Assembly (NCBI GenBank): GCA_030603275.1
Contig: JAUVYB010000005.1
Location: 13,928 to 77,927 of the forward strand
DNA: 64,000 nt
Source: Deltaproteobacteria bacterium
GTDB taxonomy: Bacteria; Chloroflexota; Dehalococcoidia; Dehalococcoidales; BS750m-G39
Reading direction: 5' to 3'
A program made the translations under genes and the position numbers. The notes beneath the pieces are model-generated. The model was not told the origin of the DNA and searched no databases. It saw only the letters and a program-made list of their open reading frames with translations. Shown piece after piece: positions 1,055-59,813 of this stretch (positions within the stretch are counted from its first letter, which is position 1; each line of letters begins with the position of its first letter).

Positions 1055-1105
1055 AGTGTTTGAACCTGACTTTCCGTAACCCCTTCCTTAAAGAGTGGGG
1101 GGAGT

Positions 1106-1157
1106 GACCCTTCCACTTAAGGGTGGAGGGTGGGAATAGATATAAAAAGGGGAGGGG
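1106..1157. repeat. G-rich intergenic repeat, family C, copy 1
   Basis: CTTAAGGGTGGAGGGTGGGAATAGATATAAAAAGGGGAGGGG, very similar to the copies at 15253-15319 and 25644-25708. Abuts the stop codon of the minus-strand ORF 1158..1487. Confidence 0.7.
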
Positions 1158-2112: not shown

Positions 2113-2146
2113 TATACGCTCTCCCCTCTAAATATTATTATTAGGT

Positions 2147-2232
2147 AACCCTATCCCCTTTATCCCCTTCCCCTCAACAAGGGGAAGAGGAGGAGAATTC
2201 TAAAAGGGGGACTTTGTCCCTCTTAAACACCC
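2147..2232. repeat. Two-hairpin composite intergenic repeat, family AB, copy 1 (partly degenerate)
   Basis: AACCCTATCCCCTTTATCCCCTTCCCCT...AAGGGGAAG...CCTCTTAAACACCC. Matches the reverse complement of 12039-12128. Confidence 0.75.
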
Positions 2233-2290
2233 TATATTCTTTAGTTCCGCTCCTCTTGACCCCCGATAAAGCGGGAGATTGGGAGCACCA

Positions 2291-2325
2291 GCCCCTTAGG
2301 GCGGGTGGGTATGGGAAGAAAAACC
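2291..2325. repeat. G-rich repeat, family C, short copy 2
   Basis: CCTTAGGGCGGGTGGGTATGGGAAGAAAAA resembles the family C core CTTAAGGGYGGNGGGTGGGAA. Confidence 0.45.
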
Positions 2326-2366
2326 CTTTTTAATCGCCCCTTATTTTTTAATTTTACCCCTTAAAT

Positions 2367-2672: not shown

Positions 2673-4303
2673 TTTTCCTCCACGCTGATAACCTGGGCGC
2701 CGAGCCTTTTGGCGGCGTCCACCAGGTGGTTGTCTTCTGCCTCATATACGCAGCGCACCTGGCAGGGGCGCCCCAGAAAGTTGCTGATGATTGCCCTGGC
2801 GACCTGCTGATTTTCTATTGTCTCCATCTTGTCCTTGTGAATGGGGTATTTAAAGGCCAGAATCACGGTATCGTCTTCAATGGCTACCGGTTTGACCCCG
2901 GCGCTCCTGAGAATGGCGATGGCCGGGGTTCTCTTAACCTCCTCCGGCGCCTTCTCCATGACATCTTTCCAGTTGACCCTAAGACGCTCGATTTCATTGT
3001 TTATCTCGAGTGGGGTGGTGGGGGTGTCATTGGCCTTTGTTGACTTTGCCTTAGACTCGGCTGGTTTTGCCTTAGGCTCGGCCACTGGTTCGGGTGCCGG
3101 TTCCGGTTTGGCCGCTGGCTTGGTTACCGGCTCGGCCTTGGCTGTTGGGGGTTTGGGTGGATAGGCCTTTGTGACCGGCGGGGGAGGTTCTTGCTTTGCC
3201 TGGGGAGCCGGGCTTTTTATTTGCTCAGCCGGCGGCTGGACGCAGTCTACCAGTGCCAGCTCCAGGGGCAGGGTGGAGTAGTTATCAAAGCCGAGGTCAA
3301 GCTGGCCGAAGAGCTTGATTGATTTTGATATCTGGGCTAAAGAGGTTTTAGCCGCCAGCTGTTTTAGTTCGGCCTTATCTTCGGCGGTGATGTCTACGGC
3401 GTCTTCCGAGCCGGTCTTTACCAGCAGCAGCTGCCGGAGGTACTCTACTACCTCACGGTTGAACTGGCGCAGGTCGAGCCCGTCACTGTTGACACCGTTT
3501 ATGGTTGTCACTCCGCCGGCGATGTCACCGGCTACTATGTGCCTGACTAATTCCTTGGCCCGCTGGTCCCCGGTAATGCCCAGGATAGCCTGGACCTGGT
3601 TGAGGCTGATTTCGGTGCCGTAGTAGGTGGTCATCTGCTCCAGCAGGTTTTCGGCATCGCGCAGGCTGCCGGTGGCGCTCTTGGCGATGAGGTTTAGCCC
3701 CTCCGGTTCCAGCTTGATGCCTTCCGTTTCACAGATGCGGGTTAGCTTGGAGATTACGTCTGGGCGGGAGATGCGCCTGAAGTCGAAGCGCTGGCACCGG
3801 GACAGGATGGTGGCCGGGATTTTATGGGCTTCGGTGGTGGCCAGAATAAAGACGATATAGGGGGGTGGTTCCTCCAGGGTTTTGAGCAGGGCATTGGAGG
3901 CACTATTACTGAGCATATGGACTTCATCGATGATATAGACCTTATAGCGGGCCTGGTTGGGGGCGTAGTTCACCTTCTCGCGCAGGCTACGGATATCGTC
4001 AACTCCGGTGTTGGAGGCGGCATCGACCTCAATTACGTCCAGCGCCCGGCCCTCGGTTATGGCCCGGCACATATCGCAGTTATTGCACGGTTCGCCCTTG
4101 CCGTTGCTGAGGCAGTTGAGCGCCTTGGCCAGAATACGCCCGGTGCTGGTCTTGCCGGTTCCCCGGGGGCCGTAAAAGAGATAAGCATGGGATACACGCC
4201 CGCTACTGAGGGCATTGCTTAATGTTTGAGTCACCTGTTCCTGACCGACTATTTCGGCCAGGGTTTGGGGGCGCCACTTGCGATAAAAGACCTGGGATGT
4301 CAT
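2669..4303 (-). CDS. dnaX: DNA polymerase III subunit gamma/tau
   Basis: 544 aa. Walker A GPRGTGKTS, zinc module CNNCDMC, DEVHML, ILSRCQRF, then a P/A/K-rich linker. Overlaps ybaB by 4 nt. Confidence 0.95.
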   Translation of the reverse strand: MTSQVFYRKWRPQTLAEIVGQEQVTQTLSNALSSGRVSHAYLFYGPRGTGKTSTGRILAKALNCLSNGKGEPCNNCDMCRAITEGRALDVIEVDAASNTGVDDIRSLREKVNYAPNQARYKVYIIDEVHMLSNSASNALLKTLEEPPPYIVFILATTEAHKIPATILSRCQRFDFRRISRPDVISKLTRICETEGIKLEPEGLNLIAKSATGSLRDAENLLEQMTTYYGTEISLNQVQAILGITGDQRAKELVRHIVAGDIAGGVTTINGVNSDGLDLRQFNREVVEYLRQLLLVKTGSEDAVDITAEDKAELKQLAAKTSLAQISKSIKLFGQLDLGFDNYSTLPLELALVDCVQPPAEQIKSPAPQAKQEPPPPVTKAYPPKPPTAKAEPVTKPAAKPEPAPEPVAEPKAKPAESKAKSTKANDTPTTPLEINNEIERLRVNWKDVMEKAPEEVKRTPAIAILRSAGVKPVAIEDDTVILAFKYPIHKDKMETIENQQVARAIISNFLGRPCQVRCVYEAEDNHLVDAAKRLGAQVISVEEK

Positions 4304-4456: not shown

Positions 4457-5632
4457 TTATAGCAGCGAGGGCAGGTCTTTTGATGCCTCTTCTATTTCCT
4501 TGAGTTTGCCCTCAAACTCCTCCCGTCTTCCCTTAAGTTCGTGGATAACGCCGCTGGCTTTGGTGTAGTAGCCCTTGACCTTTTCCACGGCATTAAGCTC
4601 CGACAGGAGCAGGGTGATGTCGATCAGGCTTTTCTCCCTGGGATAATCGCCATTCCTTATCACTGCCTCCGGACTGATGGTCCTGAGGTAATCTCCCAGC
4701 TCCTTGACTAGGTCCATATTCATTTCCTTGGCTGGAGCCGAGACCAGGTAGATGGCCCTGCCCGAGTCGGCCGGATTGCACTTGAGCGACAGTTCGCTTA
4801 AGGCTTCATCCATGGCTTGGATTCCGCGGTGAGTTTCGGTGCTCTTCTTGACGAAGTTCTTGGATAGGAAGGAGAACCATTTGAAGGCGGGCACCGGTGC
4901 TTTGCCGTAGCCGATTACTGTCCAGCCGGCCAGGCTCTGGATGATGTCACCGGCATCGACTATCTTGGCCCCGATGTGCTTGGGTTTTTTCTCCTCACCG
5001 GCGCAGAGCAGGTTGTAGAATGGCTCAGCGATTAGGGCGTTGATCTTGGTCAGGTTGTTCTTAAGCGAGAAGTCCTTCCTGACATACCTCTGGTTGTCAA
5101 CCAGGAAAACGGCATCTACTGTTGGATACAGGGATTTGAGACAGGTGGCGGTATTATAAACGGTTCTTTCCTCGGTTTCCTCTTCATGGGCGAAGGGGAG
5201 AACGGCCATGGCGTAGATGGGCTTGTCCAGATAGCGCTCTCTTAGCATCTGGGCGATTATAGGGATTGCCCCTGAGCCGGTACCGCCGGCGACGCCGGCG
5301 ATGAGCAGGAAGGCATCGGTCTCGAAGAAGTGCCGTGCCGTCCTGATGGCGTCTACGACCTTGTCGCTGTCCTCTTTGGCCACTTCGGCGCCCAGCTCGT
5401 TTATCTTGCCGACGCCGTGGCCACCGGTCCTCCGACCTCCGATGAGGATTCGGTGCTGGTAGTCACCGCTTATAACTCTTAGTCCGCTTAAGTCGGCGGC
5501 ATCGGTGTTTACGGCGAAAGCGCCGGTAACTATCTCAATGCCGCGCTGACTGCGTGCCCGCTTATTTAACTGGGCGAACTCGTCAGCGATCCTGCCGCCG
5601 CACTGTCCCAGCCCCACAACCACTAGTTTCAT
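4457..5632 (-). CDS. Tubulin/FtsZ-superfamily GTPase, CetZ-like, paralog A
   Basis: 391 aa. MKLVVVGLGQCGG (tubulin-type GQCG), GHGVG, AGGTGSG signature, VLPF, DAVFLVDN, T7-like VDAGDI. Charged C-terminal helix ending in DLPSLL. Confidence 0.75.
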   Translation of the reverse strand: MKLVVVGLGQCGGRIADEFAQLNKRARSQRGIEIVTGAFAVNTDAADLSGLRVISGDYQHRILIGGRRTGGHGVGKINELGAEVAKEDSDKVVDAIRTARHFFETDAFLLIAGVAGGTGSGAIPIIAQMLRERYLDKPIYAMAVLPFAHEEETEERTVYNTATCLKSLYPTVDAVFLVDNQRYVRKDFSLKNNLTKINALIAEPFYNLLCAGEEKKPKHIGAKIVDAGDIIQSLAGWTVIGYGKAPVPAFKWFSFLSKNFVKKSTETHRGIQAMDEALSELSLKCNPADSGRAIYLVSAPAKEMNMDLVKELGDYLRTISPEAVIRNGDYPREKSLIDITLLLSELNAVEKVKGYYTKASGVIHELKGRREEFEGKLKEIEEASKDLPSLL

Positions 5633-5693: not shown

Positions 5694-6869
5694 CTAATCC
5701 AGAGTAGGGAGCTCGTCGCCTGTATGATGCATTTCTTTCACTTGCTCCCGGGTTTCTTTATCTATTTCCACCTGCTTGTCAAATAGCTCGGTAGCGTGGC
5801 TGAATAGAGTTTCCACCCGACCTACCCTGGCTAATCCGGAAGCCAATAATGTTAGCGAGACTTCCTTGCCTCTTCGGGGGTAATCACCCATTCTGACTAC
5901 TGCTTTAGGAGCTCGCTCTTGCAACAGAGTCGCCACCTCTTCTATGGCGCTCAGGGTAATAGTTCCTCTGGGGGCGGTGAGCAGGACCAGGATTCTCCTG
6001 GCCTCTGCCAGGTCGATTGATACCGACAGGTTGCTTATTGCCTTGTCCAGGGCTCCGGCTACGGAGCCGTGTTCCCTGGCTTCTTCCCGGAAGTGCGACT
6101 TGTTAAGGCGGTGGAAGGTGCCCATTTCAATCTGCCCCCGGCCGATGGCGGTGATGCCGCCCAGGGTCTGTTTGATATCCCCGGCATCCAGCACCTTGCT
6201 TCCCAGGTATTTCATCCTTTTCTCTTCACCGGCGCAGAAAAGGTCATAGAAATTATTAACGAACTCGTGGTTTATCTGGTGCAGATTTCGGGAGAAGCTG
6301 TTGTCCCGGCGGGCGAAGCGTTCGTTATCCACCAGAAAGACGGCGTCAGCGTACTGGCTGACCGTTTTTAAACAGGTGGCGGTATTGGTTACAGCATAGG
6401 AGGTAAGTCCGTTTTCTTCGTAGCCGAAGGGAAGCACTATGACGGCGTAGACCGGCTTATCCATCCTTTCCTTGAGTGACTTGACCACCCAGCCGATGGA
6501 GCCGGAGCCGGTACCCCCACCGCCGCTGGCTATGGTCAGAACTGCGTCGGTTTCGTGGAATTTTCTGGAGTCCAGGATGTTATCGGTGATGGTCGAGTGG
6601 CTTTCCCGGATAATCTTGGCGGCATCGAAATTCATTTTGCCCACGCCATGGCCGAAGGTTCTCACCCCGCCGATGACAATCCGGTGGTGCCTGTCGGTGG
6701 GGATGTGCTTGAATCCGCCTAAATCGGCTTCATCGGTGTTAACGGCGAAGGCATCGGTTAGGATTTCAATCCGGCGGGTAAAGAGTGACCGGGCGTGAGT
6801 GTTGAGGGCATAAAACTGGTCGGCAATGTTGCAGCCGCACTGTCCAAAACCTACAACGACTATTTTCAT
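5694..6869 (-). CDS. Tubulin/FtsZ-superfamily GTPase, CetZ-like, paralog B
   Basis: 391 aa. MKIVVVGFGQCG, GHGVG, exact tubulin signature GGGTGSG, VLPF, DAVFLVDN, LDAGDI. C-terminal tail DELPTLD. Roughly 45% identical to paralog A by eye. Confidence 0.75.
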   Translation of the reverse strand: MKIVVVGFGQCGCNIADQFYALNTHARSLFTRRIEILTDAFAVNTDEADLGGFKHIPTDRHHRIVIGGVRTFGHGVGKMNFDAAKIIRESHSTITDNILDSRKFHETDAVLTIASGGGGTGSGSIGWVVKSLKERMDKPVYAVIVLPFGYEENGLTSYAVTNTATCLKTVSQYADAVFLVDNERFARRDNSFSRNLHQINHEFVNNFYDLFCAGEEKRMKYLGSKVLDAGDIKQTLGGITAIGRGQIEMGTFHRLNKSHFREEAREHGSVAGALDKAISNLSVSIDLAEARRILVLLTAPRGTITLSAIEEVATLLQERAPKAVVRMGDYPRRGKEVSLTLLASGLARVGRVETLFSHATELFDKQVEIDKETREQVKEMHHTGDELPTLD

Positions 6870-11775: not shown

Positions 11776-11860
11776 GTATAGCGATTATAGCACCTGAAGC
11801 TGGGGTCGGCAAAGGGGGGTTTTTATAGATGGTTGCTGCCCCGCCCAGTTTTAGAAGTCG

Positions 11861-11891
11861 TTTTTCGTCCCACCCTCCCACCCTTCAGAGG
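11861..11891. repeat. G-rich repeat, family C, copy 3 (inverted)
   Basis: The reverse complement reads CCTCTGAAGGGTGGGAGGGTGGGACGAAAAA. It lies in a 369-bp repeat-filled intergenic region. Confidence 0.5.
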
Positions 11892-12038
11892 TTGGAACCT
11901 TTCTCCAACTCGCTTTTATGGGGGTGGGGGGAGAAGGGGAGGAAAGCCGAAGTATTTTTTGGGCGTTTGGTAGAAGCGAAAACTTGTTGAAGGTAGTCAT
12001 TCCTTTTGGGTGGAGGGAGAAGGGGAAGCGACTAATCA

Positions 12039-12128
12039 GGGGTGTTTAAGAGGGGGCGAAGCCCCCTCTTCTTAAAAAATTATTCCCCTTCCCCTTGCCA
12101 AGGGGAAGGGGATAAAGGGGATAGGGTT
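12039..12128. repeat. Two-hairpin composite repeat, family AB, copy 2 (best preserved, inverted relative to copy 1)
   Basis: GGGGTGTTTAAGAGGGGGC-GAA-GCCCCCTCTT...CCCCTTCCCCTT-GCCA-AAGGGGAAGGGGATAAAGGGGATAGGGTT. Has a 10-bp and a 12-bp perfect stem. Confidence 0.8.
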
Positions 12129-12144: not shown

Positions 12145-12717
12145 CTAATTAAACTTATTCATGGCCGGGGTCAGCCCCTCAGCGAGCAGGTAGAGGACGG
12201 CTTCGCTCACCCTGGGTATAATCTGGTTGATGGCCTTTTTTTCTTCAGATGTAAAATTGTTGAGCACATAGTCTATAATATCGTCTTCGCCGGGGTTGGC
12301 CTTATCCGGCCGGCCGATGCCCACCCGGATGCGGGTGAACTCCCGGGTGCCCAGCTCCTGGATAATAGAGCTAATGCCCTTGTGCCCCCCGGAGCCGCTG
12401 CCGGAACTTACGCGGATTTTAGCCAGGGGCAGGTCAAGGTCGTCGTGGATGACCAGCATGTCCTGGGGATTGACGCTGAATTTCCGCACCAGGCGGCTTA
12501 CCGACCGGCCGCTATTATTCATGTAGGTCTGGGGCCGGGCCAGCACCAACTTGTTTCCGGCCACCGCCCCCGTGCCGACGCGGGCCAGCCCCTGTTTGCG
12601 GTCGAACTTTATCCCCTGGGTGCGGGCGAAATATCTCAGGCAGATAAAGCCGATATTGTGGCGGTTACCGGCGTAGGACCGCCCCGGGTTACCTAAACCT
12701 ACGATTAGTTTCGTCAT
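12145..12717 (-). CDS. pth: Peptidyl-tRNA hydrolase
   Basis: 190 aa. LIVGLGNPG..Y...RHNIGF, bacterial Pth type. Confidence 0.95.
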   Translation of the reverse strand: MTKLIVGLGNPGRSYAGNRHNIGFICLRYFARTQGIKFDRKQGLARVGTGAVAGNKLVLARPQTYMNNSGRSVSRLVRKFSVNPQDMLVIHDDLDLPLAKIRVSSGSGSGGHKGISSIIQELGTREFTRIRVGIGRPDKANPGEDDIIDYVLNNFTSEEKKAINQIIPRVSEAVLYLLAEGLTPAMNKFN

Positions 12718-15227: not shown

Positions 15228-15255
15228 AGTATAGCAAAGCCGGTGGCTGGGTAAA
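15228..15255 (-). promoter_or_regulatory. Putative promoter of ligA (inside a 32-nt duplicated module)
   Basis: Minus strand: TTTACC, 16 nt, TATACT. The module 15225-15256 recurs at 17023-17054 with 2 mismatches. Confidence 0.4.
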
Positions 15256-15319
15256 AAGGGCTTTAGCCCGCTTACCTTAAAGGGTGGTGGGTGGGAAAAG
15301 ATTTAAAACGGGGGTGGGG
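15253..15319. repeat. G-rich repeat, family C, copy 4
   Basis: AAAAGGGCTTTAGCCCGCTTACCTTAAAGGGTGGTGGGTGGGAAAAGATTTAAAACGGGGGTGGGG. Overlaps the last codons of 15303..17003. Confidence 0.7.
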
Positions 15320-21781: not shown

Positions 21782-21866
21782 GGGGTGTTTAAGAGGGGCG
21801 CCAGCCCTTCTTTTTAAAAACTATTTCCCCCTCCCTTACAAGGGAGGGGGATTAAGGGGGTGGGTT
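21782..21866. repeat. Two-hairpin composite repeat, family AB, copy 3 (inverted)
   Basis: GGGGTGTTTAAGAGGGGC-GCCA-GCCCTTCTT...CCCCCTCCC-TTACAA-GGGAGGGGGATTAAGGGGGTGGGTT. Confidence 0.8.
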
Positions 21867-21929
21867 GCTGAGCAAATAACTAAGCGGGTTAGGTTAATAA
21901 ATAACTTTCTTGTGCTATACTTGGCTTGA

Positions 21930-22001
21930 GCCAGCGTAGCTCAGGGGTAGAGCAGCGGTTTCGTAAACCGCCGGTCGTCAGTTCGAATCTGACCGCTGGC
22001 T
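21930..22001 (+). tRNA. tRNA-Thr (anticodon CGT)
   Basis: Hand-folded cloverleaf: acceptor GCCAGCG/CGCTGGC, D arm GCTC/GAGC, anticodon stem GCGGT/ACCGC with loop TTCGTAA, T arm GTCAG-TTCGAAT-CTGAC. No encoded CCA. Confidence 0.93.
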
Positions 22002-22097
22002 GTCTTTGTTTGGGGTTCTGTTGCCGACATTTTGCCGACAAACTGTCTAGCACCCGGGGGAACCCGCGAGTACAGCCAGATACAAAATTGGGCTTAT

Positions 22098-22169
22098 GCC
22101 AGCGTAGCTCAGGGGTAGAGCAGCGGTTTTGTAAACCGCCGGTCGTCAGTTCGAATCTGACCGCTGGCT
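22098..22169 (+). tRNA. tRNA-Thr (anticodon TGT)
   Basis: Identical to the previous tRNA except for one base, C34 to T34 (anticodon loop TTTGTAA). Confidence 0.93.
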
Positions 22170-23222
22170 GTCTTTGTTTTCGTAGACCTTTATTCTTCTC
22201 AGCTTGAGTATCAGGAAGACCTCTTTACCCACCGCCAGGCTCATATCCTCAAAGATGTGGTGGGGCATGCCCGCCAGCAGGTTAAGCGCCCCCGCCTTGA
22301 GCCCGATTCTGACCGTCTCGTTGGTGGGGTTGATGCTGGTTACAAGCGCCTTAAAGCGGTTTACCTCCGGCCCCGGTGGGTGGGTTTCCGAGATGTGTAT
22401 ATCGCTGGGGAGGAGGGCAATGCGGTGAACCGCCTCTCCGTCATGGGGGACGATTATGGGCAGGCCGCCGCAGCCGACCTCCATAACCCCTTTGCCTAAG
22501 CTGCGGCAGTAGTCGCAGTCCAGAATATTGGGCGCCCCGATGAAATCGGAGACCTTTTCGTTCTGGGGGTAGAAAAACACCCTTTCCGGCTTATCCACCT
22601 GCTCCAGGCAGCCGTTCTGGATAACGGCTATGCGGTCGGCCATCTCCTCGGCCTCCTGAAGGTCGTGGGTTACGTAGGCGGTGGTGATTCCCAGCCTCTG
22701 CTGGAGCTGCTTGAGCTCAGTCCTGAGGTACTTGGCGGTGGGCACATCCAGGCTGGATAAAGGTTCATCAAGGAGCAGTACTTTAGGGGATGGCGCCAGC
22801 GCCCTTGCCAGAGCCACCCGCTGTTTTTCCCCGCCGCTCAAGTTTTTGGGGTAGCGCGAGGCCAGGTGCTCTATCTTCATCATCTGGAGGAGTTGTTTTA
22901 CCCGGCTTTCAGCCTGTTGCGGCGTTTGTTTTTTGGCGGTCAGGCCGTAGGCGATATTGGCGGCGACATCAAGGTGGGGGAACAAGACTAAATCCTGAAA
23001 GAGGTAGCCCACCTCTCGCTTATTGGCGGGGAGCTTGTCCACCGCCACCCCGTCAAAGAGCACCGAGCCCCGGTAGTCGGTCAGGCCGGCGATAATGTTG
23101 ACCACGGTGGTCTTGCCGGCACCGTTGGGCCCCAGCAGCACCATTAATTCTTTGTCCCGTATCTTGAGGTTGACATCGCGGCAGATGTACTGGCATATAT
23201 TCTTTAGCTCTATAGCGGGCAT
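22146..23222 (-). CDS. ABC transporter ATP-binding protein with C-terminal TOBE-like domain
   Basis: 358 aa. Walker A GPNGAGKT, signature LSGGEKQR, Walker B LLLDEP. The roughly 120-aa C-terminal extension looks like those of ModC/CysA/WtpC. The last 24 nt are antisense to tRNA-Thr(TGT). Confidence 0.88.
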   Translation of the reverse strand: MPAIELKNICQYICRDVNLKIRDKELMVLLGPNGAGKTTVVNIIAGLTDYRGSVLFDGVAVDKLPANKREVGYLFQDLVLFPHLDVAANIAYGLTAKKQTPQQAESRVKQLLQMMKIEHLASRYPKNLSGGEKQRVALARALAPSPKVLLLDEPLSSLDVPTAKYLRTELKQLQQRLGITTAYVTHDLQEAEEMADRIAVIQNGCLEQVDKPERVFFYPQNEKVSDFIGAPNILDCDYCRSLGKGVMEVGCGGLPIIVPHDGEAVHRIALLPSDIHISETHPPGPEVNRFKALVTSINPTNETVRIGLKAGALNLLAGMPHHIFEDMSLAVGKEVFLILKLRRIKVYENKDSQRSDSN

Positions 23223-25522: not shown

Positions 25523-25606
25523 AACCCACCCCCTTAATCCCCCTCCCTTACAAGGGAGGGGGAAAGTATTTATAAAAGAGGGGCGTCAGCCCCTCTTAAA
25601 CACCCC
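25523..25606. repeat. Two-hairpin composite repeat, family AB, copy 4
   Basis: AACCCACCCCCTTAATCCCCCTCCC-TTACAA-GGGAGGGGG...AAGAGGGGC-GTCA-GCCCCTCTTAAACACCCC. Confidence 0.8.
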
Positions 25607-25643
25607 ACTGGGTTAACATTTTTTTTAAAAAAAGGGGGGGATG

Positions 25644-25708
25644 AAAAGGGCGTCAGCCCTTTTACCTTAAAGGGCGGCGGGTGGGAATAGATAAAAATGG
25701 GGGTGGGG
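25644..25708. repeat. G-rich repeat, family C, copy 5
   Basis: AAAAGGGC-GTCA-GCCCTTTT hairpin followed by ACCTTAAAGGGCGGCGGGTGGGAATAGATAAAAATGGGGGTGGGG. Abuts the stop of 25709..26287. Confidence 0.75.
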
Positions 25709-27770: not shown

Positions 27771-27951
27771 CTTGGCCTGTTCTCCACCGCATTATACCGC
27801 TTGCGACCTGTCAATGCGAGGGGGCATTGATGTTTTTTTGATGTAAATTTGACGTTTTGCTGATGCCGTTTCTAGGCTTTTTTGATTGCTATGGTGCTAT
27901 GTTATTGGTAAGCCCGATTACGCTTCGAGGCGGGCAGAACAGGAGGTAAGC

Positions 27952-29328
27952 ATGAAAAGGAAAATTTTGGGCATGATAACCATTGTGGCAGTGATTCTGG
28001 GGGTGGTAATAGCCGTCCCGGCGGTCGCGGCGGATGTTACGGTGAGTATAGACGCCCCGGCGCAGGTATCCCCCGCCAGCGATTTCACCGTTAATATTAA
28101 TATCACGGAGGTGACCGACTTTGACGCCTGTAACTATGATGTTTCTTTTGACGCCTCGGTGCTGAGGCTGGATAACGTCACCTCCGGGCTGATAGGCTCA
28201 ACCGCGATACCGGTTGATGTCTATAACGAGATTAGCGCCGGCACCTACCGGGTTATTCAGAATGTCCCCGGTATCTCAGGGGTATCCGGTACCGGCTACC
28301 TGGGGGTGCTGAGCTTTCATGTCCTTGGCGCTGAGGGCGACAGCAGCACCATAACTTTCTCCAACGGCGTGATTGCCAGCAGCCTGGCCGAGGAGATAAC
28401 GGCCACCTGGGTGGGCGGCTCGGTGGAGGTGACGGTGACGCCGGTGGCGGTTAGTATAGACGCCCCGGCTGAAGTCAGCCCCGCCAGCGATTTCACCGTT
28501 AACGTCAATATCGGCGATATTACCGACTTCGATGCCGTTAGCTTTGACGTCTCCTTTGATACCCTGGTGCTGCGGCTGGATGATGTAACCGCCGGGCTGA
28601 TAGGCGCAACCGCGATACCGGTGGATATCTATAGCGAGGTTGAGGTGGGGACATGGCGGGTTGTCCAGAACGTGCCCGGTGTAACCGGCGTGACCGGCTC
28701 CGGGTATCTGGCGGTTTTGCACTTCCATGTTATCGGCGCTGACGGCGACGGCAGCGCTATAAGCCTGTCCAACGGCGTGCTTTCCAATAACCTGGCCGAG
28801 GAGATAACGGCCACCTGGACCGGTGATTCGGTGACTATTGCCGATAACACCGCGCCGGTGGTGACCATAACGCCGTTTACCCCCGACCCGACCGATAACA
28901 CCACCCCGACCTTAACCGGCACCGCCACCGATGAATCTAATATAAGCACGGTGGAGTACAAGGTTGATGACGGCATCTGGACGGCGGCGACGGCCAGTGA
29001 CGGCGCCTTTGACAGCCCCAGCGAGAGTTATACCTTTACCACGGCCGCCCTTTCCGAGGCAGAGCATACGGTATACGTCCGGGCTACCGATTCGGCGGGT
29101 AACACTACCGCCGAGGTCGATTACGCCAGTGACAGCTTTACCGTGCAGACGGTGGCACCTGGAGACGCCAACGGTGACGGCACCGTTAATGTCCTTGATA
29201 TCACCAGGGTGGAGAGGGCGATAGCCGCCCTTGATCCTGAAACCCCCGGCTCTGATGCCAATCAGGACGGCGTGATTAACGTGCTGGATATTACCCGGAT
29301 AGAGAGGATGATTGCTGGCCTGGGTTAG
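27952..29328 (+). CDS. Secreted/anchored protein: 2 cohesin-like domains + Ig-like domain + C-terminal dockerin
   Basis: Start at MKRKILGMITIVAVILG (AGGAGG lies 6 nt upstream). Two ~136-aa repeats follow the cohesin pattern (F.VN.NI...TDFDA..(Y/F)DVSFD..VLRLD.VT.G). C-terminal duplicated DANGDGTVNVLDITRVERAIA / DANQDGVINVLDITRIERMIA. Confidence 0.75.
   Translation: MKRKILGMITIVAVILGVVIAVPAVAADVTVSIDAPAQVSPASDFTVNINITEVTDFDACNYDVSFDASVLRLDNVTSGLIGSTAIPVDVYNEISAGTYRVIQNVPGISGVSGTGYLGVLSFHVLGAEGDSSTITFSNGVIASSLAEEITATWVGGSVEVTVTPVAVSIDAPAEVSPASDFTVNVNIGDITDFDAVSFDVSFDTLVLRLDDVTAGLIGATAIPVDIYSEVEVGTWRVVQNVPGVTGVTGSGYLAVLHFHVIGADGDGSAISLSNGVLSNNLAEEITATWTGDSVTIADNTAPVVTITPFTPDPTDNTTPTLTGTATDESNISTVEYKVDDGIWTAATASDGAFDSPSESYTFTTAALSEAEHTVYVRATDSAGNTTAEVDYASDSFTVQTVAPGDANGDGTVNVLDITRVERAIAALDPETPGSDANQDGVINVLDITRIERMIAGLG
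28036..28839 (+). repeat. Tandem ~408-nt duplication encoding the two cohesin-like domains
   Basis: The units start at 28036 and 28444. About 80% nucleotide identity by eye over the aligned stretches. Confidence 0.8.
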
Positions 29329-43986: not shown

Positions 43987-45393
43987 ATGACTATGGACTT
44001 GAGAAGCAAAGTGATGAGGATAACAATAAGAGGGGTGTTAACTTTTAGCCTTGTCTGTCTGTTGTGGCTGGCATGGGCGGCAATGAAAGGTAGTATAGCT
44101 TTGGCTGCTGATCCCACCGGACTAGGAGGCACGGCAGATGCGGCGATAGACTATGTGTGGATATTAGTCTGTGCCTTCCTGGTGATGTTTATGCAGCCAG
44201 GGTTTGCTATGGTCGGGGCCGGATTCACCCGGGCTAAGAATGCCGGGAACTTTATGACTAAAAACTTGATGGATTTTGTGATTGGCTCACTAACTTTCTT
44301 CTTCGTGGGTTATGCCCTGATGATGGGCGGCGACTGGCACGGTCTCTGGGGCACAGAAGGCTGGTTCATGCTTGGTGAGTATTATGATGTTGATGCTTAT
44401 CTCAATATGTTCTGGATGCTGGTCTTCTGTGCTACTGCTGCTACCATTGTCGCCGGTGCTGTCGCCGAGCGGCTGAAGTTTAAGGCTTATCTTATCTATA
44501 GTGTAGTAGTCAGTGCCATTATTTATCCCATCTATGGTCACTGGGTGTGGGGAGGAGGCTGGCTTTCCAGTCTGCCGCTCGGGCTAGGCGCTCTGGACTT
44601 TGCCGGTTCGGGGGTAGTTCATGCCGTTGGTGGTCTCGTTGGCTTAGCTGGAGCAATCGTTCTCGGTCCGAGGTTTGGCAGATATGATAAGAGCGGAAAG
44701 CCACGGGCAATCCCCGGGCATAGCATAACGCTGGCTACCCTGGGAGTCTTTATCCTGTGGTTTGGCTGGTTTGGCTTTAACCCGGGCAGTACTTGTGATG
44801 CGCACCATCTGAGAATATCGGTTATCGCCGTCAACACCAATCTGGCAGCGGCTGCCGGTGGACTGGCCGCACTCCTTGTAGCCTACTGGAAGACAAGGAA
44901 ATGGGATATAGGTATGCTTATCAATGGCATATTAGCCGGACTTGTCGCCATTACTGCCCCCTGCGCCTGGGTAGAGGGTTGGGCAGCAATTGTGATTGGT
45001 CTTATCGGTGGTGTGCTAATGTATGCCAGTGTCAAGTTCCTTGAAGCTAAGAGGATAGATGACCCGGTGGGGGCAGTGAGTGTGCACGGTGCTTGTGGTC
45101 TGTGGGGTCTGCTTAGCGTCGGTTTCTTTGCCGATGGAACCTATGGTAATTACTCAGTTGACGCACCATATGTCACCGGTCTATTTTACGGGGGGGGAGG
45201 TGAGCAGTTACTCGCCCAGCTTATCAGTGTAGTAGTGGTTGCCGTTTGGGCATTCGGTATGGGCTACCTAACTTTTAAGCTAATGAATAAGGCTTTTGGC
45301 ATTCGTGTATCCCCTGAAGAGGAGCTGCAGGGATTGGATATCCCCGAGCATGGCGCACCAGCTTATCCCGACTTTATTACTAAGCAAAGTTAG
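43987..45393 (+). CDS. amt: Ammonium transporter
   Basis: 468 aa. FMQPGFAMV, D.AG..VVH..GG, W.GW.GFN, multiple TM helices. Confidence 0.95.
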   Translation: MTMDLRSKVMRITIRGVLTFSLVCLLWLAWAAMKGSIALAADPTGLGGTADAAIDYVWILVCAFLVMFMQPGFAMVGAGFTRAKNAGNFMTKNLMDFVIGSLTFFFVGYALMMGGDWHGLWGTEGWFMLGEYYDVDAYLNMFWMLVFCATAATIVAGAVAERLKFKAYLIYSVVVSAIIYPIYGHWVWGGGWLSSLPLGLGALDFAGSGVVHAVGGLVGLAGAIVLGPRFGRYDKSGKPRAIPGHSITLATLGVFILWFGWFGFNPGSTCDAHHLRISVIAVNTNLAAAAGGLAALLVAYWKTRKWDIGMLINGILAGLVAITAPCAWVEGWAAIVIGLIGGVLMYASVKFLEAKRIDDPVGAVSVHGACGLWGLLSVGFFADGTYGNYSVDAPYVTGLFYGGGGEQLLAQLISVVVVAVWAFGMGYLTFKLMNKAFGIRVSPEEELQGLDIPEHGAPAYPDFITKQS

Positions 45394-45429
45394 GTCAGCG
45401 GCAATATGGAATAAGGGGGCGTGAAGAAA

Positions 45430-45768
45430 ATGAAGAAGATAGAGGCGATAATTAGGGTAGAGAAATTTGAGGAGGTGAAGGAAGCTTTGAAGGAATTGGG
45501 CTACCCTGGAATGACCAAGACCCTCGTTGAGGGTCATGGCAAGCAGAAAGGGCTTAAGCAACAGTTTCGCGGTACAACATTTGAAGTAGAAATGGTGCCC
45601 AAGTTAAAACTGGAAATTGTAGTGCTTGACGAAGATGTATCTAGGACACTCGCGGCTATCGTCAGAGGTGCTAGGACTGATGATGTCGGTGACGGCAAGA
45701 TTTTTGTCCTGCCGGTGGAGCATGCGGTGCGCGTCCGCACCGGTGATATAGACGAAAATGCCGTCTAG
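45430..45768 (+). CDS. glnB: P-II family nitrogen regulatory protein
   Basis: Start at MKKIEAIIR gives the canonical 112 aa. GDGKIFV. The T-loop reads GHGKQKGLKQQFRGTTF, so Phe sits where enterobacterial P-II has the uridylylated Tyr51. Confidence 0.93.
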   Translation: MKKIEAIIRVEKFEEVKEALKELGYPGMTKTLVEGHGKQKGLKQQFRGTTFEVEMVPKLKLEIVVLDEDVSRTLAAIVRGARTDDVGDGKIFVLPVEHAVRVRTGDIDENAV

Positions 45769-45880
45769 GCAGGTTGCGAGGTGTAGCAGTATGTAGTACA
45801 TTGATGATAATAAGTACATTGATTGTAAAATAGCTAAATTCTATAAATAAAAATAAGTATTACCAAAGGAGGTGGTAACA

Positions 45881-47224
45881 ATGGCCAACAGGAGCAGGGA
45901 AGAGGCTAATGATTATATTTTAAAGATGGCCAAGGAGCATGATGTTAAGTTTATCCGGCTGTGGTTTACCGATATACAGGGTATACTAAAGAGCTTTGCC
46001 ATCACCGTGGAAGAGCTGGAAGGAGCCATGACCGAAGGGATGGGCTTTGACGGGTCGTCAATTCAGGGATTTGCCCGGATTGATGAGAGTGATATGGTGG
46101 CCCTGCCTGACCCGGATACCTTTCAGCTGCTGCCCTGGAGGCCGCGTGAGCACAATGCCGTGGCCCGCATGTTCTGTGATGTCTTAAGGCCGGGGGGCGA
46201 GCCTTTTGAGGGTGACCCCAGATTTGTCCTTAAGAGGAACCTGAAGCGGGCGGCCGACCTGGGCTATACTTTTTATGTGGGACCGGAACTGGAGTTCTTC
46301 TATTTTCAGGATTCCGAGAGCACCGTGCTGCTGGACCAGGGAGGCTACTTTGATTTGACTCCGCGGGATGCCGCTATCGAGATGAGGAAGGATACCGTTC
46401 TGGACCTGGAGGATATGGGTATCGGCGTTGAGTATTCCCACCACGAAGTCGCCCCCAGCCAGCATGAAATAGACATGAGGTATACCGATGCCCTGACCAT
46501 GGCCGATAACGTGATGACCTATCGCCTTGTTGTCAAAGAGGTAGCCTTCAGGCATGGCGTCTATGCCACCTTTATGCCCAAGCCCGTCTTCGGCATCAAC
46601 GGCAGCGGCATGCACGTTCACCAGTCGCTTTTCAATGGCGACCGGAACGCCTTCTTTGATAAAGCTGATGAATACCATCTGTCCAAGATAGCCAGGAGCT
46701 ATATAGCCGGACTGCTGGCACACGCTCCCGAGATTACGGCGGTGACCAACCAGTGGGTCAACTCTTACAAGCGGCTGGTTCCCGGTTACGAGGCGCCGGT
46801 ATACCTGTCTTGGGCGCGGCGCAACCGCTCTGACCTTATCCGAGTCCCGGAGTACCGGCCGGGCAGGGAAAAGGCGACCAGACTTGAATACCGCTCTCCC
46901 GACCCGGCCTGCAACCCCTATCTGGCCTTCAGTGTCATGCTGGCCGCCGGGCTGGAGGGAATTGAGAAGGGCCTGGAGCCGCCTCCGCCGGTAGAAGAGA
47001 ATGTCTATGAGATGTCCGTAGAGGAAAGGCAGAAGCGGGGCATAGGCACCCTGCCGGCCAGCCTGCTGGAAGCCATACTGTTAGCCGAGAAGAGTGAGCT
47101 AGTGCGCAAGGCTCTTGGCGACCATGTTTTTGAGGCTTTCATCCAGAACAAGAAGATAGAGTGGGGAAATTACCGCGCTCAGGTAACCGAATACGAGCTG
47201 AAGAAGTACCTGCCCATATTATAA
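45881..47224 (+). CDS. glnA: Glutamine synthetase, type I
   Basis: Start at MANRSREE (AAGGAGG lies 8 nt upstream). FTD..G, GFDGSS, GPE.EFF, HHEVA..Q.E, NGSGMH.H.S. Confidence 0.95.
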   Translation: MANRSREEANDYILKMAKEHDVKFIRLWFTDIQGILKSFAITVEELEGAMTEGMGFDGSSIQGFARIDESDMVALPDPDTFQLLPWRPREHNAVARMFCDVLRPGGEPFEGDPRFVLKRNLKRAADLGYTFYVGPELEFFYFQDSESTVLLDQGGYFDLTPRDAAIEMRKDTVLDLEDMGIGVEYSHHEVAPSQHEIDMRYTDALTMADNVMTYRLVVKEVAFRHGVYATFMPKPVFGINGSGMHVHQSLFNGDRNAFFDKADEYHLSKIARSYIAGLLAHAPEITAVTNQWVNSYKRLVPGYEAPVYLSWARRNRSDLIRVPEYRPGREKATRLEYRSPDPACNPYLAFSVMLAAGLEGIEKGLEPPPPVEENVYEMSVEERQKRGIGTLPASLLEAILLAEKSELVRKALGDHVFEAFIQNKKIEWGNYRAQVTEYELKKYLPIL

Positions 47225-47244
47225 AGTCTGAGAGGGGGGCCGCT

Positions 47245-48999
47245 ATGCCGCAGTTGGGTGATGCCCGCAGGCTGCGCATCGGGATGGCTCAGCTCAACGC
47301 TACCGTGGGTGATTTTGCCGGCAACCGGCGGAAAATCCTGAGTGCCATTAAAGAAGCCAGGTCTCTGGGAGTGGATTTGCTCGCTCTTCCCGAACTGGCT
47401 ACATGCGGCTATCCCCCCGAAGACCTGCTTTTTAAGCCCAAGTTTATCGCCGAAAACCTGCGTTCGCTGGAAAAGGTGGTCGAGGCTTCATCGGGGTTAG
47501 CTGTCGTCGTCGGCTTTGTTGATGCCAGAGAGGACATCTATAACGCGGCGGCCGTAATTCACGACGGCAGGCTAGCCGGCGTCTATCACAAGATATTTCT
47601 GCCCAACTACGGCGTCTTTGATGAGAACCGCTACTTCCGCGCCGGCAACCAATGCCCGGTCTATACTATCGGCGGCATCGGGCTGGGCATCAACATCTGT
47701 GAGGACATCTGGTACGAGGATGGGCCGGCTACCGCCCAGGCCAATGCTGGAGCCGAGGTTATCGTTACCATAAGCGCTTCGCCCTATCACTTCGGCAAGG
47801 TGGATTTGCGGGAAAGGATGATAGTATCCCGCGCCGTGGACAACGTGGCTATCTTCACTCACACCAACCTGGTGGGAGGGCAGGATGAGCTGGTCTTCGA
47901 CGGCAACAGTATAGCCGTGGATGAGAAGGGGCAGCTGCTGGCCCGGGGCAGGCAGTTTGAGGAGGACCTGATAGTGGCCGACCTGGATGTTGAATCCGTC
48001 TTCCGGGCGCGTCTTCACGACCCCAGGTGGCGCAAAGAGCCACCGCCTGCCGGGGAGCCAGGGTGTCCCACCCCCAAAATAGTGGTATCCGAGGCGCCGT
48101 TCGAGCTGAAGAAACCGGCCTTACCCCCCAGACAGGTTGAGCTGCGGGGGTCGCCCGGCGAGGTCTATGATGCGCTGGTGCTGGGCACCGGTGACTATGT
48201 GCACAAGAACGGCTTTGAGAAGGTATTAATTGGTCTTTCCGGGGGGTTGGACTCGAGCCTGGTGGCGGCTATTGCCGTTGACGCCTTGGGCAAGTCCAAC
48301 GTGGTGGGGGTGGCTATGCCTTCCCGGTACTCTTCCCCCGGCAGCCTTTCCGACGCCGGGTTGCTGGCCAAAAACCTGGGCATAAAGCTGCTGACCATTC
48401 CAATCGAGAAGATTTTTAAAGCCTATCTGGATACGCTGGCCGGGGCTTTTAAGGAGACGGAACCCAATGTAGCCGAGGAGAATATCCAGGCCCGCATCAG
48501 GGGCAATATACTGATGGCGCTGTCCAATAAGTTCGGCTGGCTGGTGCTGCCCACCGGTAACAAAAGCGAGATGGCCACCGGCTACACCACGCTGTACGGG
48601 GACATGGCCGGCGGCTTTGCCGTGATAAAGGATGTGCCCAAGACAATGGTCTATGAGCTGGCCGGATACCGTAACCGGCTTTCCGGTTATGAGCTGATAC
48701 CGGCTACTATTATGGATAAGCCTCCTTCGGCGGAGCTGAAGCCGGAGCAAAAGGATATTGACACCCTACCTCCATATGAGCTGCTTGACCCGGTGCTGAC
48801 GGCATATGTCGAGGAGGATAAGAGCGTGGAGCAGATAATCGCCCTGGGCAACGATGAAAAAGTGGTAAAGCGAGCGGCCCGGCTGGTGGACGCCAGCGAG
48901 TACAAGCGCCGCCAGGCGCCGCCGGGGGTTAAGATAACCCCCAGAGCATTTGGCAGGGACAGGCGGCTGCCCATTACCAACCGCTTCAAGGGTTCATAA
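47245..48999 (+). CDS. nadE: Glutamine-dependent NAD+ synthetase (nitrilase-type glutaminase + NAD synthetase domains)
   Basis: Start at MPQLGDARRLRIGMAQLN, just after the glnA stop. CN-hydrolase half (ELATCGYPPEDL, ICED). Synthetase half with SGGLDSS. Confidence 0.92.
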   Translation: MPQLGDARRLRIGMAQLNATVGDFAGNRRKILSAIKEARSLGVDLLALPELATCGYPPEDLLFKPKFIAENLRSLEKVVEASSGLAVVVGFVDAREDIYNAAAVIHDGRLAGVYHKIFLPNYGVFDENRYFRAGNQCPVYTIGGIGLGINICEDIWYEDGPATAQANAGAEVIVTISASPYHFGKVDLRERMIVSRAVDNVAIFTHTNLVGGQDELVFDGNSIAVDEKGQLLARGRQFEEDLIVADLDVESVFRARLHDPRWRKEPPPAGEPGCPTPKIVVSEAPFELKKPALPPRQVELRGSPGEVYDALVLGTGDYVHKNGFEKVLIGLSGGLDSSLVAAIAVDALGKSNVVGVAMPSRYSSPGSLSDAGLLAKNLGIKLLTIPIEKIFKAYLDTLAGAFKETEPNVAEENIQARIRGNILMALSNKFGWLVLPTGNKSEMATGYTTLYGDMAGGFAVIKDVPKTMVYELAGYRNRLSGYELIPATIMDKPPSAELKPEQKDIDTLPPYELLDPVLTAYVEEDKSVEQIIALGNDEKVVKRAARLVDASEYKRRQAPPGVKITPRAFGRDRRLPITNRFKGS

Positions 49000-58828: not shown

Positions 58829-58880
58829 TTGGATGACCCGAACTCCAACTAAAATTCCGGAGAGGGGAGGTCATCCAATG
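58829..58880 (+). promoter_or_regulatory. 5'-leader hairpin sequestering the Shine-Dalgarno sequence and start codon of zinc-ribbon gene 1
   Basis: TTGGATGACC (58829-58838) pairs perfectly with GGTCATCCAA (58869-58878). The 3' arm contains the last 2 nt of GGAGG and the A of the ATG at 58878. Confidence 0.55.
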
Positions 58881-59123
58881 TGCTTTCAGGACAAGTCGCT
58901 CCAATGTTCCGATTGTGGGGCCACATTTACTTTCAGCGCTGAGGAACAAGAGTTTTTCCAGTCTAAAGGCTTTACTAATGAGCCAAAGCGCTGTCCCTCG
59001 TGCCATACAGCAAGGAAGACAAAGCGTTACGGAGATGGTGACTACAGCTACAGATCCAGATCCTGGCAGCAGATGTTCCGTTTAAATTTCTATCAAGTGT
59101 TGGATGACCCCAACTCTAACTAA
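58878..59123 (+). CDS. Small zinc-ribbon protein (CxxC...CxxC, zf-trcl-like), paralog 1 with C-terminal extension
   Basis: Start at MCFQDKSLQCSDCG (GGAGG lies 7 nt upstream). CSDC...CPSC. 81 aa. Its stop lies inside the leader of paralog 2. Confidence 0.7.
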   Translation: MCFQDKSLQCSDCGATFTFSAEEQEFFQSKGFTNEPKRCPSCHTARKTKRYGDGDYSYRSRSWQQMFRLNFYQVLDDPNSN

Positions 59124-59147
59124 TAGAAGAGAGGAGGTCATCCAATG
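59100..59147 (+). promoter_or_regulatory. Second copy of the SD/AUG-sequestering hairpin (leader of zinc-ribbon gene 2)
   Basis: TTGGATGACC (59100-59109) pairs with GGTCATCCAA (59136-59145). ATG at 59145. Confidence 0.55.
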
Positions 59148-59333
59148 AGCTTTCAGGACAAAGAGATCCAATGTTCCGATTGTGGGACTACATTCACTTT
59201 CAGCGCTGGGGAACAAGAGTTCTTCCAGTCTAAAGGCTTTACCAATGAGCCTAAGCGCTGTCCCTCATGCCGTCGAGCCAACAAAGCGCAGCGTTCCGAT
59301 AGCGGAAACTATAGCCAAAGTTCCAAGTGGTGA
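59145..59333 (+). CDS. Small zinc-ribbon protein (zf-trcl-like), paralog 2
   Basis: 62 aa: MSFQDKEIQCSDCGTTFTFSAGEQEFFQSKGFTNEPKRCPSCRRANK. Confidence 0.72.
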   Translation: MSFQDKEIQCSDCGTTFTFSAGEQEFFQSKGFTNEPKRCPSCRRANKAQRSDSGNYSQSSKW

Positions 59334-59459
59334 ATGCTTTGTGCCTTCTACGTGAGCAGCTAATGCTGGTTTGCTTTTGAAGACATGCACAGGTCAGGAG
59401 TACCTGGCCTGTGTGCCACTAGAACAAGGATTACACAATGTAACAAGGAGGGTTCTAAT

Positions 59460-59813
59460 ATGAGAATCTATGTAGGTAACTTATCCTATGACGTGACTGA
59501 AGAGGAGTTAAGGGAAGATTTCGCCTCTTTTGGAAAGGTAGAGTCTATAGCTATTCCAACCGACAAATATAGCGGTAGAGCCAGAGGATTTGCCTTTGTC
59601 GAGATGCCTTCGGTGTCCGAGGGTCAGGCGGCAATCGCAGCTCTCAATGGCAAGACGGTAAAAGACCGGACTCTCACCGTGAATGCCGCACGCCCCCGTT
59701 CTGACAGCGGAGGCGGTGGATCCTATGGCGACAGAAGAGGTGGTGGGGGTGGTGGATTTGGTGGCGGTGGTAGAGGTGGTAGATCCGGGGGAGGAAGACA
59801 GCAAAGATATTAA
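59460..59813 (+). CDS. RRM-domain RNA-binding protein with glycine/arginine-rich tail
   Basis: Start at MRIYVGNLSY (RNP2; AAGGAGGG upstream). RNP1 RGFAFVEM. C-terminal GGGGSYGDRRGGGGGGFGGGGRGGRSGGGR. Confidence 0.87.
   Translation: MRIYVGNLSYDVTEEELREDFASFGKVESIAIPTDKYSGRARGFAFVEMPSVSEGQAAIAALNGKTVKDRTLTVNAARPRSDSGGGGSYGDRRGGGGGGFGGGGRGGRSGGGRQQRY

Follow-up and report, generated by a model that had tools for sequence, protein, structure and literature searches.

A dispersed two-hairpin element in the window

The window, a 64,000-nt (64-kb) stretch of contig JAUVYB010000005.1 (assembly GCA_030603275.1), is unremarkable bacterial chromosomal DNA with a G+C content of about 55%. It contains the housekeeping genes dnaX-ybaB-recR, eno, gap, pth, ligA, tyrS and ribF, two tRNA-Thr genes and a nitrogen-assimilation cluster. 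Its RecR protein is 83–97% identical to many metagenomic proteins, the named ones among which are labelled Dehalococcoidia; the nearest NCBI record is a metagenome-assembled genome bearing the label "Deltaproteobacteria bacterium". No record exactly matching the Pth protein of the window was found. Between the genes of this segment lie four copies of an element of 85–95 nt, which had been described in an earlier note on the same DNA as an intergenic repeat composed of two hairpins. The window was searched, filters off, with covariance model R1, which draws on six members of the family (five come from other genomes), and exactly these four full copies were returned (72–95 bits, E 6e-15 to 2.6e-20). 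Their sites, the presence of both orientations and the intergenic position of all four were confirmed. The 15-mer CCCTCTTAAACACCC occurs exactly four times in the window. When up to three mismatches were allowed, eight matches were obtained, a number reached in 0 of 100 shuffles (shuffle mean 2.3).

Copy 2 (12039–12127; C-rich strand on the minus strand; 95.2 bits, E 2.6e-20) is a complete element. It begins 17 nt past the stop codon of pth (12145–12717 by Pfam) in sense orientation. Along its C-rich strand, the head (ACCCTATCCCCT, 12116–12127), a putative third-strand segment that mirrors the 5′ arm of the adjoining hairpin, is followed by the linker TTA (12113–12115) and by hairpin H2, which consists of a homopyrimidine 5′ arm (TCCCCTTCCCCT, 12101–12112), the loop TGGCA (12096–12100) and a homopurine 3′ arm (AGGGGAAGGGGA, 12084–12095) and forms 12 out of 12 Watson-Crick pairs. 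An A/T-rich spacer (ATAATTTTTTAAG, 12071–12083), variable across the family, leads to hairpin H1 (12048–12070), in which AAGAGGGGGC (12061–12070) and GCCCCCTCTT (12048–12057) enclose the loop TTC. The linker AAA (12045–12047) and the tail CACCCC (12039–12044), a further putative third-strand segment that mirrors the 3′ arm of H1, complete the element. On the C-rich strand, unit 1 thus comprises head, 3-nt linker, homopyrimidine (Y) arm, loop and homopurine (R) arm, and unit 2 homopurine arm, loop, homopyrimidine arm, AAA linker and tail. Hairpins, spacer and tail had been recognized correctly in the earlier note, but the element in fact starts about 12–15 nt upstream of H2 with the conserved C-rich head, to which that note referred only implicitly. 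The mirror relation of head and tail to the hairpin arms was absent from that note.

Copy 1 (2148–2233, plus strand; 86.9 bits) is located between ybaB and recR, antisense to both, and is partly degraded. It consists of head (2148–2159), Y arm (2163–2174), R arm (2180–2191), H1 (2204–2224) and tail (2228–2233). One C.A mismatch is present in H2 (R arm AGGGGAAGAGGA), one G.T pair in H1 (AAGGGGGAC/GTCCCTCTT), and the tail reads CACCCT. Copy 3 (21782–21866, minus strand; 72.4 bits) lies between the divergent ribF and tRNA-Thr genes and is flanked by promoter-like sites at 21766–21738 (minus) and 21894–21921 (plus). Its head (21855–21866), Y arm (21840–21851), R arm (21826–21837), H1 (21791–21812) and tail (21782–21787) are all present, with one A.C mismatch in H1 (AAGAAGGGC). 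Copy 4 (25523–25606, plus strand; 74.9 bits), found between a MobA-like gene and an open reading frame (ORF) of 127 amino acids and antisense to both, has all its Watson-Crick pairs intact (head 25523–25534, Y arm 25538–25549, R arm 25552–25563, H1 25576–25597, tail 25601–25606). Copies 3 and 4 are identical from CAACCC in the head through CACCCCA in the tail, while their loops differ.

As claimed previously, the H2 stem exists in two versions in which both arms change together. The H1 versions differ as well, but a 10-bp H1 occurs in copy 2 only, and the proposed H1 subfamilies therefore do not follow the H2 subfamilies. Folded as DNA and compared with shuffled sequences, copies 2–4 reached z scores of −3.5 to −6.6, the lowest belonging to copy 4, and copy 1 was marginal (z −1.5 to −1.9). 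ViennaRNA, which models hairpins only, left head and tail unpaired.

Covariation of hairpin arms, head and tail across the family

A scan for the 15-mer in one genome per GTDB species detected at least 117 loci. Among the matches listed, about 78 loci were from Dehalococcoidia, Dehalococcoidales or Dehalococcoidaceae metagenome-assembled genomes (MAGs) representing about 55 assemblies, counts that are approximate because they were taken from record labels. Matches in other phyla lacked the surrounding hairpin and resemble chance 15-mers. Nearly all Dehalococcoidia matches read AAGAGGGGC-N3-4-GCCCCTCTTAAACACCC. Upstream of this unit of H1 and tail stands either the H2 unit (type A) or another C-rich module, CCCCACCCC..TTTTATCTATTCCCGCCCGCCGCCCTTTAAGG (type B). 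Model R1, applied to 96 loci among the 15-mer matches listed, identified 83 copies at E < 1e-9, many without the exact 15-mer, and these copies are the basis of the family statistics. Some contigs of 7–8 kb hold six to eight copies, and several subfamilies coexist in a single genome and recur across genomes. The element is one family of modular intergenic repeats of about 85–95 nt present in at least 55 species-level Dehalococcoidia MAGs. Literature searches on Dehalococcoidia repeats, REPs and small RNAs yielded no description of it. At the gathering threshold, Rfam matched nothing in the window except two tRNAs, and a permissive search gave sub-threshold scores of at best 27.7 bits (threshold 55) and 24.1 bits (threshold 80.4).

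Whole-element alignments made with MAFFT staggered the arms because loop lengths differ; they were replaced by realignment to a covariance model, starting from a small seed alignment. In the resulting alignment of 83 copies, 97.9% of the cells form standard pairs, and 16 of 21 pairs are changed on both sides (136 cells). None of 500 shuffles reached the observed value in any of five measures, and slid registers paired at 49–77%. Pairing was thus kept across the family, and the view of the earlier note that selection acts on structure is borne out. In H2, we counted 645 CG and 295 TA pairs and only 4 reversed ones. Nearly all changes exchange C-G and T-A, leaving a homopyrimidine 5′ arm and a homopurine 3′ arm.

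The head is complementary to nothing in the element. It is instead the mirror image of the adjoining H2 5′ arm, with A or T in the head where the arm has T. At least six variants of the arm were found, each with its matching head: ACCTCACCCCCT accompanies the arm TCCCCCTCTCCT, AACCCACCCCCT the arm TCCCCCTCCCTT, (A)CCCCATCCCCT the arm TCCCCTTCCCCT, ATCTCTCCCCCT the arm TCCCCCTCTCTT, CCCCATCCCCCT the arm TCCCCCTTCCCC and AAATCCCCCT the arm TCCCCCTTT. With the 3-nt linker held fixed, 0.861 of the cells fit the mirror relation; other registers gave 0.41–0.57 and comparison as a direct repeat at most 0.65. When heads were permuted among copies, 0 of 1000 permutations reached the observed fit (mean 77%, maximum 81%), and heads fitted the arm of their own copy at 0.91 compared to 0.77 for the arms of other copies. 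At mismatched pairs the head mostly retains the ancestral C, and for this reason a test of the arm to which it conforms there gave no information.

The same relation connects the tail to the 3′ arm of H1. The arm GCCCCTCTT occurs with the tail C(A/T)CCCC, GCCTCTCTT with CTCTCC and GTCCCTCTT with C(A/T)CCCT. At register 0, 0.907 of the cells fit, compared to 0.39–0.60 when the tail was slid, and the tail matches 17 of 21 changed positions of the H1 arm. Conservation follows this layout: head (1.4–1.5 bits per position) and tail (1.2–1.3) carry information close to that of the arms (1.5–1.6), linkers (0.7), loops (0.5–0.8) and spacer (0.6) carry less, and in the 10 nt beyond either end of the element the value drops to 0.1–0.35 bits. 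Head and tail covary with the arms, and these comparisons show all six segments to be under selection.

One locus, L040, contains two stretches of more than 214 nt (2935–3148 and 6094–6307) that are 98% identical, lie in opposite orientation and each include a type A copy and further modules. These near-identical copies were considered as boundary evidence and set aside, since they are part of a larger duplication and mute on the ends of the element.

Predicted triplex motifs, genomic context and competing explanations

A homopurine-homopyrimidine hairpin accompanied by a mirror image of one of its arms corresponds to a fold-back triplex design. From its sequence, the G-rich strand reads RH-R-Y ... 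spacer ... Y-R-RH, where RH denotes the reverse-Hoogsteen domain, that is, two predicted purine-type intrastrand triplex motifs. The three-domain orders Y-R-RH (class II) and RH-R-Y (class I) are both present on this strand in all four window copies, the class II motif with 12 triplets and the class I motif with 6–8, built from G.G-C, A.A-T and T.A-T. In the window copies the third strand runs antiparallel to the purine arm with allowed triplets, at 11–12 of 12 levels in unit 1 and 8 of 8 in unit 2. In copy 2, the head, which reads AGGGGATAGGGT on the plus strand, would be the RH domain of the class II motif with 11 of 12 levels allowed, and the tail, GGGGTG(TT) on that strand, the RH domain of the class I motif with 8 of 8. 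Copies 3 and 4 both score 12 of 12 and 8 of 8. Across the family, 45 of 68 copies obey the purine-motif rule at no fewer than 11 of the 12 levels.

Class definitions follow PMC4666352; the ITxF criteria are stems of 6–15 nt, loops of 1–6 nt and at most one mismatch. We performed a blind ITxF-like scan of the window with 9-nt stems, at most one Watson-Crick and one Hoogsteen mismatch, and a first loop of up to 8 nt. Strong motifs appeared only at copies 2–4, and none were found in 30 dinucleotide shuffles. Class II motifs were detected at copies 2, 3 and 4 and class I motifs at copies 2 and 4; those of copy 2 cover 12090–12124 (class II, plus strand) and 12038–12070 (class I).

All these results make it probable, in our judgement, that the element is a double-module repeat of intrastrand triplex motifs whose G-rich strand can fold as DNA and whose foldability is selected. 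The element probably acts as DNA. Triplex formation in the cell, the strand concerned and the role played are inferred. In the proposed mechanism, replication, or negative supercoiling that arises behind or between polymerases, would open the duplex, and the G-rich strand would then fold into two hairpins, each capped by its third strand. Selection would keep foldability for the spread of the element or for some use by the host. The rapid local turnover of module-bearing intergenic DNA could be a side effect, as proposed for the TMECO repeats of Escherichia coli, which were first known as BoxC, then rediscovered as potential intrastrand triplex (PIT) elements and later given their present name (PMC4666352).

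Several observations weigh against this reading. Copy 1 fails the strict scan criteria with one Watson-Crick and one Hoogsteen defect, and the class I stems are short (6–8 nt). One-sided changes in H2 favour G.T on the C-rich strand (17 TG versus 7 CA), which fits a hairpin on the C-rich strand better than one on the G-rich strand, although a deamination bias could give the same excess. Related subfamilies inflate the covariation counts; we estimate about 6–9 independent events for the head and about 3 for the tail. Moreover, the alignment used, A6, was fitted to the hairpins of the model. For E. coli, in vivo dimethyl sulfate footprinting of a TMECO site did not reveal the expected triplex protection, and earlier work saw no in vivo effect (PMC4666352).

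The genomic context of the copies follows no orientation rule. Crude ORF calls allowed 63 copies to be classified. Divergent genes flank 21 of them, convergent genes 9 and co-directional genes 33, the last group being split into 12 sense and 21 antisense copies. A replication-oriented signal of the KOPS or Chi type was dismissed, as copies occur in both orientations although the GC skew of the window is constant. The surrounding spacers are variable. The ybaB-recR spacer of the window (2113–2366) measures 254 nt and holds copy 1 together with a type-B-like module; relatives with RecR 90–95% identical have only 16, 26 or 56 nt, the 56-nt version holding a plain GC hairpin with a T-run. In relatives with 97% identical RecR the spacer is 262 nt long and bears type B modules but no type A copy between near-identical coding flanks. 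At pth, relative L118 carries a different filler in place of copy 2, and a copy beside aspS in L122/L123 is missing in L118/L120.

Type B modules are themselves repeated. Three lie in the window (1088–1157, 15249–15318 and 25639–25708, C-rich strand on the minus strand), and a similar stretch spans 2234–2327. Their sequence is CCCCACCCC..TTTTATCTATTCCC(A/G)CCC(A/G)CC(A/G)CCCTTTAAGG. In the window they start at or just past the stop codon of a minus-strand gene, in the orientation of that gene, and are followed by a hairpin and a T-run; in other genomes they are fused to the unit of H1 and tail instead of H2. Behind aspS, a type B module is kept at the same site in three relatives (L118/L120/L122). 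A G-quadruplex on the type B G-rich strand, with its five runs of at least three G, is possible. For type A, a G-quadruplex was rejected: wide gaps separate the four G-runs, which compete with the hairpins, and such a fold would have no need of mirrored A/T interruptions.

The presence or absence of copies among relatives with 90–97% identical RecR, including the absence of copy 1 from between near-identical coding flanks and the aspS-linked copy restricted to L122/L123, would be expected of a non-autonomous mobile element resembling miniature inverted-repeat transposable elements (MITEs) or REPINs, as would the coexisting and recurring subfamilies. Hairpins and flanks would then be the recognition structure of a single-strand-DNA transposase of the HUH/Y1 type. 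This idea is compatible with the triplex fold; as the explanation we consider it rather improbable. The ends of the element, CAACCCACCCCC... and ...AAACACCCC, are mirror or direct C-rich segments and not terminal inverted repeats. A target-site duplication is absent at copies 3 and 4 and doubtful at copy 1 (5 bp, ATATT); the spacers compared between filled and empty sites are patchworks of several modules. Furthermore, Pfam found no transposase, integrase or Y1_Tnp domain in the 68 ORFs of the window, and 2.9 million viral contigs (IMG/VR) gave a single match. Loops and spacers differ while arms are identical, which indicates long-term constraint rather than recent copying. A role at the RNA level is unlikely. 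According to that proposal, the hairpins would be intrinsic terminators or blocks to 3′ exonucleases, with head and tail accessory or unstructured. The hairpins are indeed very stable, copy 2 lies in sense orientation just behind pth, and G.T exceeds C.A over both hairpins (26 versus 16). A consensus scan flagged H2 in sense orientation at copies 2, 3 and 4 and H1 in antisense orientation at copy 3 as terminator-like; for copies 2–4 this is because the spacer is T-rich. However, a T-run follows H2 (sense) in only 31 of 83 copies and H1 (antisense) in 29 of 83, the copies between divergent genes, a third of those classified, lie where no transcript ends, and the wobble type showed no association with the transcribed strand, albeit in few cases. 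Neither the mirroring of head and tail nor their arm-like conservation would be explained. The suggestion of the earlier note that the element could be a structured RNA family did not hold up either, given the absence of an Rfam match, the occurrence of copies in both orientations relative to transcription and the many copies between divergent genes.

It is quite improbable that the C-rich strand is the working one, as DNA or RNA, by means of pyrimidine-motif triplexes of classes IV and III. The domain order fits these classes too, pyrimidine-type intrastrand triplexes can form in RNA (PMC4666352), the excess of G.T over C.A in H2 points in this direction, and T-variants exist in the tail (CTCCCC, CTCTCC) and the head (AACCCTCCCCCT). 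Such triplexes require C+.G-C and T.A-T, so that the frequent A in the third strand would be a mismatch. Opposite an arm T, the third strand has A versus T in 108 versus 115 cells in unit 1 and in 184 versus 38 in unit 2, and only 3 of 68 copies obey the pyrimidine rule at no fewer than 11 of the 12 levels. By established triplex chemistry, four to five adjacent protonated cytosines are, in addition, disfavoured at neutral pH, a point also noted for TMECO (PMC4666352). A likeness arisen by chance, or left over from a single local segmental duplication as the earlier note had allowed, could draw only on the small number of four copies in the window; with the element in dozens of genomes, at unrelated loci and with compensatory changes, this reading is refuted. 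Neither of the two outcomes that the earlier note had named as refuting its view, loss of base pairing and restriction to the four sites, came about.

The double-module triplex repeat on the G-rich strand is the reading we prefer. The joint change of third strands and arms argues comparatively, at the sequence level, that a three-stranded design is selected. More tentatively, and with less than even confidence, the mirror covariation might be taken as evolutionary evidence for a three-stranded DNA fold under selection in living cells, the double unit being a functional device and not a by-product of G/C-rich repeats. If so, it may be the recognition and propagation structure of a putative single-strand-DNA enzyme or, alternatively, a supercoil-responsive structure in promoter-proximal spacers. 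Covariation of the third strand makes testable the old question of whether triplex designs matter in cells. The intrastrand triplex repeats of E. coli have been known for decades, and work on them has yielded neither a function nor signs of folding in vivo. Beyond what they provide, the family has many diverged subfamilies, third strand and duplex changing in concert, and its conservation falls off sharply just at the outer ends of the third strands.

In practical terms, the repeats mark hypervariable intergenic regions in Dehalococcoidia MAGs, may contribute to assembly breaks (several copies lie at contig ends) and can be mistaken for terminators or small RNAs. They are also a lineage marker that exposes mislabelled bins. 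The MAG GCA_013202445.1 (JABMRW01, L129/L041), named "Deltaproteobacteria bacterium bin.571", has a RecR 97% identical to that of the window, the same gene order and the repeat family; its label or bin is probably wrong. The labels of L019, L074 and L086 are similarly doubtful.

Other features of the window were recorded. Upstream of the promoter-like site of an LDcluster4 gene, a G-rich block, GAAGGGTGGGAGGGTGGGACGAAAAACG (11850–11890, minus strand), is common to the window and L118, the surrounding DNA being variable. With their flanks included, the two tRNA-Thr genes (21923–22011 and 22091–22179; CGT and TGT anticodons) share 97% identity, a sign of recent tandem duplication and a change of anticodon. 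Two adjoining paralogues of 391 amino acids (4457–5632 and 5694–6869, minus strand) combine a tubulin/FtsZ GTPase domain with a CetZ C-terminal domain, and the pair is kept in relatives; CetZ is an archaeal-type tubulin-like protein. A nitrogen repressor of the NrpR type (PF01995; 49076–50086), a kind typical of Euryarchaeota, is encoded beside the amtB-glnB-glnA-nadE cluster (43987–48999). A protein with cohesin and dockerin domains (27886–29328) contains an internal 300-nt repeat (28040–28339 and 28448–28747, 76% identical). At 58833–60269, a 198-nt direct repeat (58861–59058 and 59128–59325, 82% identical) encloses a treble-clef zinc-finger ORF; two tandem RRM-domain proteins come next, and then a DEAD-box helicase.

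Relation to REP, MITE, H-DNA and TMECO elements

E. coli REPs sit mainly at the 3′ ends of genes. Like REP, BIME and REPIN sequences, the Dehalococcoidia element is short, abundant, intergenic and hairpin-forming, and it forms mosaics with other modules, the type B head being able to replace unit 1. A REP- or BIME-like nature, as considered in the earlier note, therefore applies insofar as the element is a dispersed, mosaic and insertion-polymorphic intergenic repeat, but not beyond that. It has no bias towards gene 3′ ends, 33% of the copies are located between divergent genes, and its arms are homopurine and homopyrimidine with mirror flanks. In REPs, one end of the palindrome bears GTAG or CGTC, a tetranucleotide that is conserved (PMC3733652). 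The consensus has no such tag at the hairpin feet, which read TTA|TCCCC and AAA|AAGAGG, and no REP-associated tyrosine transposase (RAYT) is encoded among the 68 ORFs of the 64-kb window. On tag, 3′-end bias and, for the window, RAYT, membership in the REP family was not supported. The resemblance to miniature mobile elements is likewise partial: with Correia, RUP, ERIC and BOX MITEs the element shares a length of about 90 nt, dispersal, insertion polymorphism, modularity and foldability, but it has neither terminal inverted repeats nor a consistent target-site duplication.

A homopurine-homopyrimidine mirror repeat is the sequence requirement for H-DNA, and head, linker and arm together form a homopyrimidine mirror repeat with a 3-nt centre. 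Here, the complementary arm is on the same strand, so that a single strand can supply all three segments and the predicted triplex would be intrastrand and not of the H-DNA type.

The closest counterpart in design is TMECO. This class II purine-motif intrastrand triplex, with the pattern 5′-CCCTCNCCC N3-6 GGGNGAGGG N3 GGGNGAGGG, folds in vitro as judged by circular dichroism, nuclear magnetic resonance and melting; purine-motif triplexes do not form in RNA (PMC4666352). TMECO elements are intergenic without strand bias, upstream of ORFs more often than downstream, and not associated with transposons, phages or plasmids; their loops are less conserved than their stems, and their surroundings are more rearranged among strains than control sites (PMC4666352). 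The Dehalococcoidia element is alike in having, on one strand, a C-rich stem, a loop of 3–6 nt, a G-rich stem, a 3-nt loop and a second, mirroring G-rich stem, with the same triplets and the common core GAGAGGG ... GGGTGAGG. An E. coli example reads CCCTCTCCC-TGA-GGGAGAGGG-TTA-GGGTGAGGG and the commonest Dehalococcoidia form TCCCCCTCTCCT-loop-AGGAGAGGGGGA-TAA-AGGGGGTGAGGT, the second loop being TTA in E. coli and TAA or TAAA here. The element, too, is multi-copy, strictly intergenic, without strand bias and more often adjacent to gene starts, shows no transposon or phage link, and has loops less conserved than its stems and neighbouring intergenic DNA that is hypervariable among close relatives.

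The TMECO sequence pattern, however, had no match in the window; the element is thus not TMECO by sequence but only of the same structural kind. Its stems are 12 nt long compared to 9 nt in TMECO. In E. coli the motifs are single or form inverted pairs on opposite strands, whereas in every Dehalococcoidia copy an A/T spacer links a class II unit with one of class I, both being on the same strand. Further points of difference are the conservation of sequence across at least 55 species-level MAGs and the support of the third strand by covariation. BoxC/PIT/TMECO elements also occur in other Proteobacteria, and G/C-rich intrastrand triplex motifs in Cyanobacteria (Hoyne et al. 2000, as cited by Holder et al. 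2015, PMC4666352); the host here belongs to Chloroflexota, class Dehalococcoidia, which PMC4666352 does not mention. On present sequence comparisons, the element is best filed as a double-module form of intrastrand-triplex-motif repeats, likened to BoxC by its apparent design.

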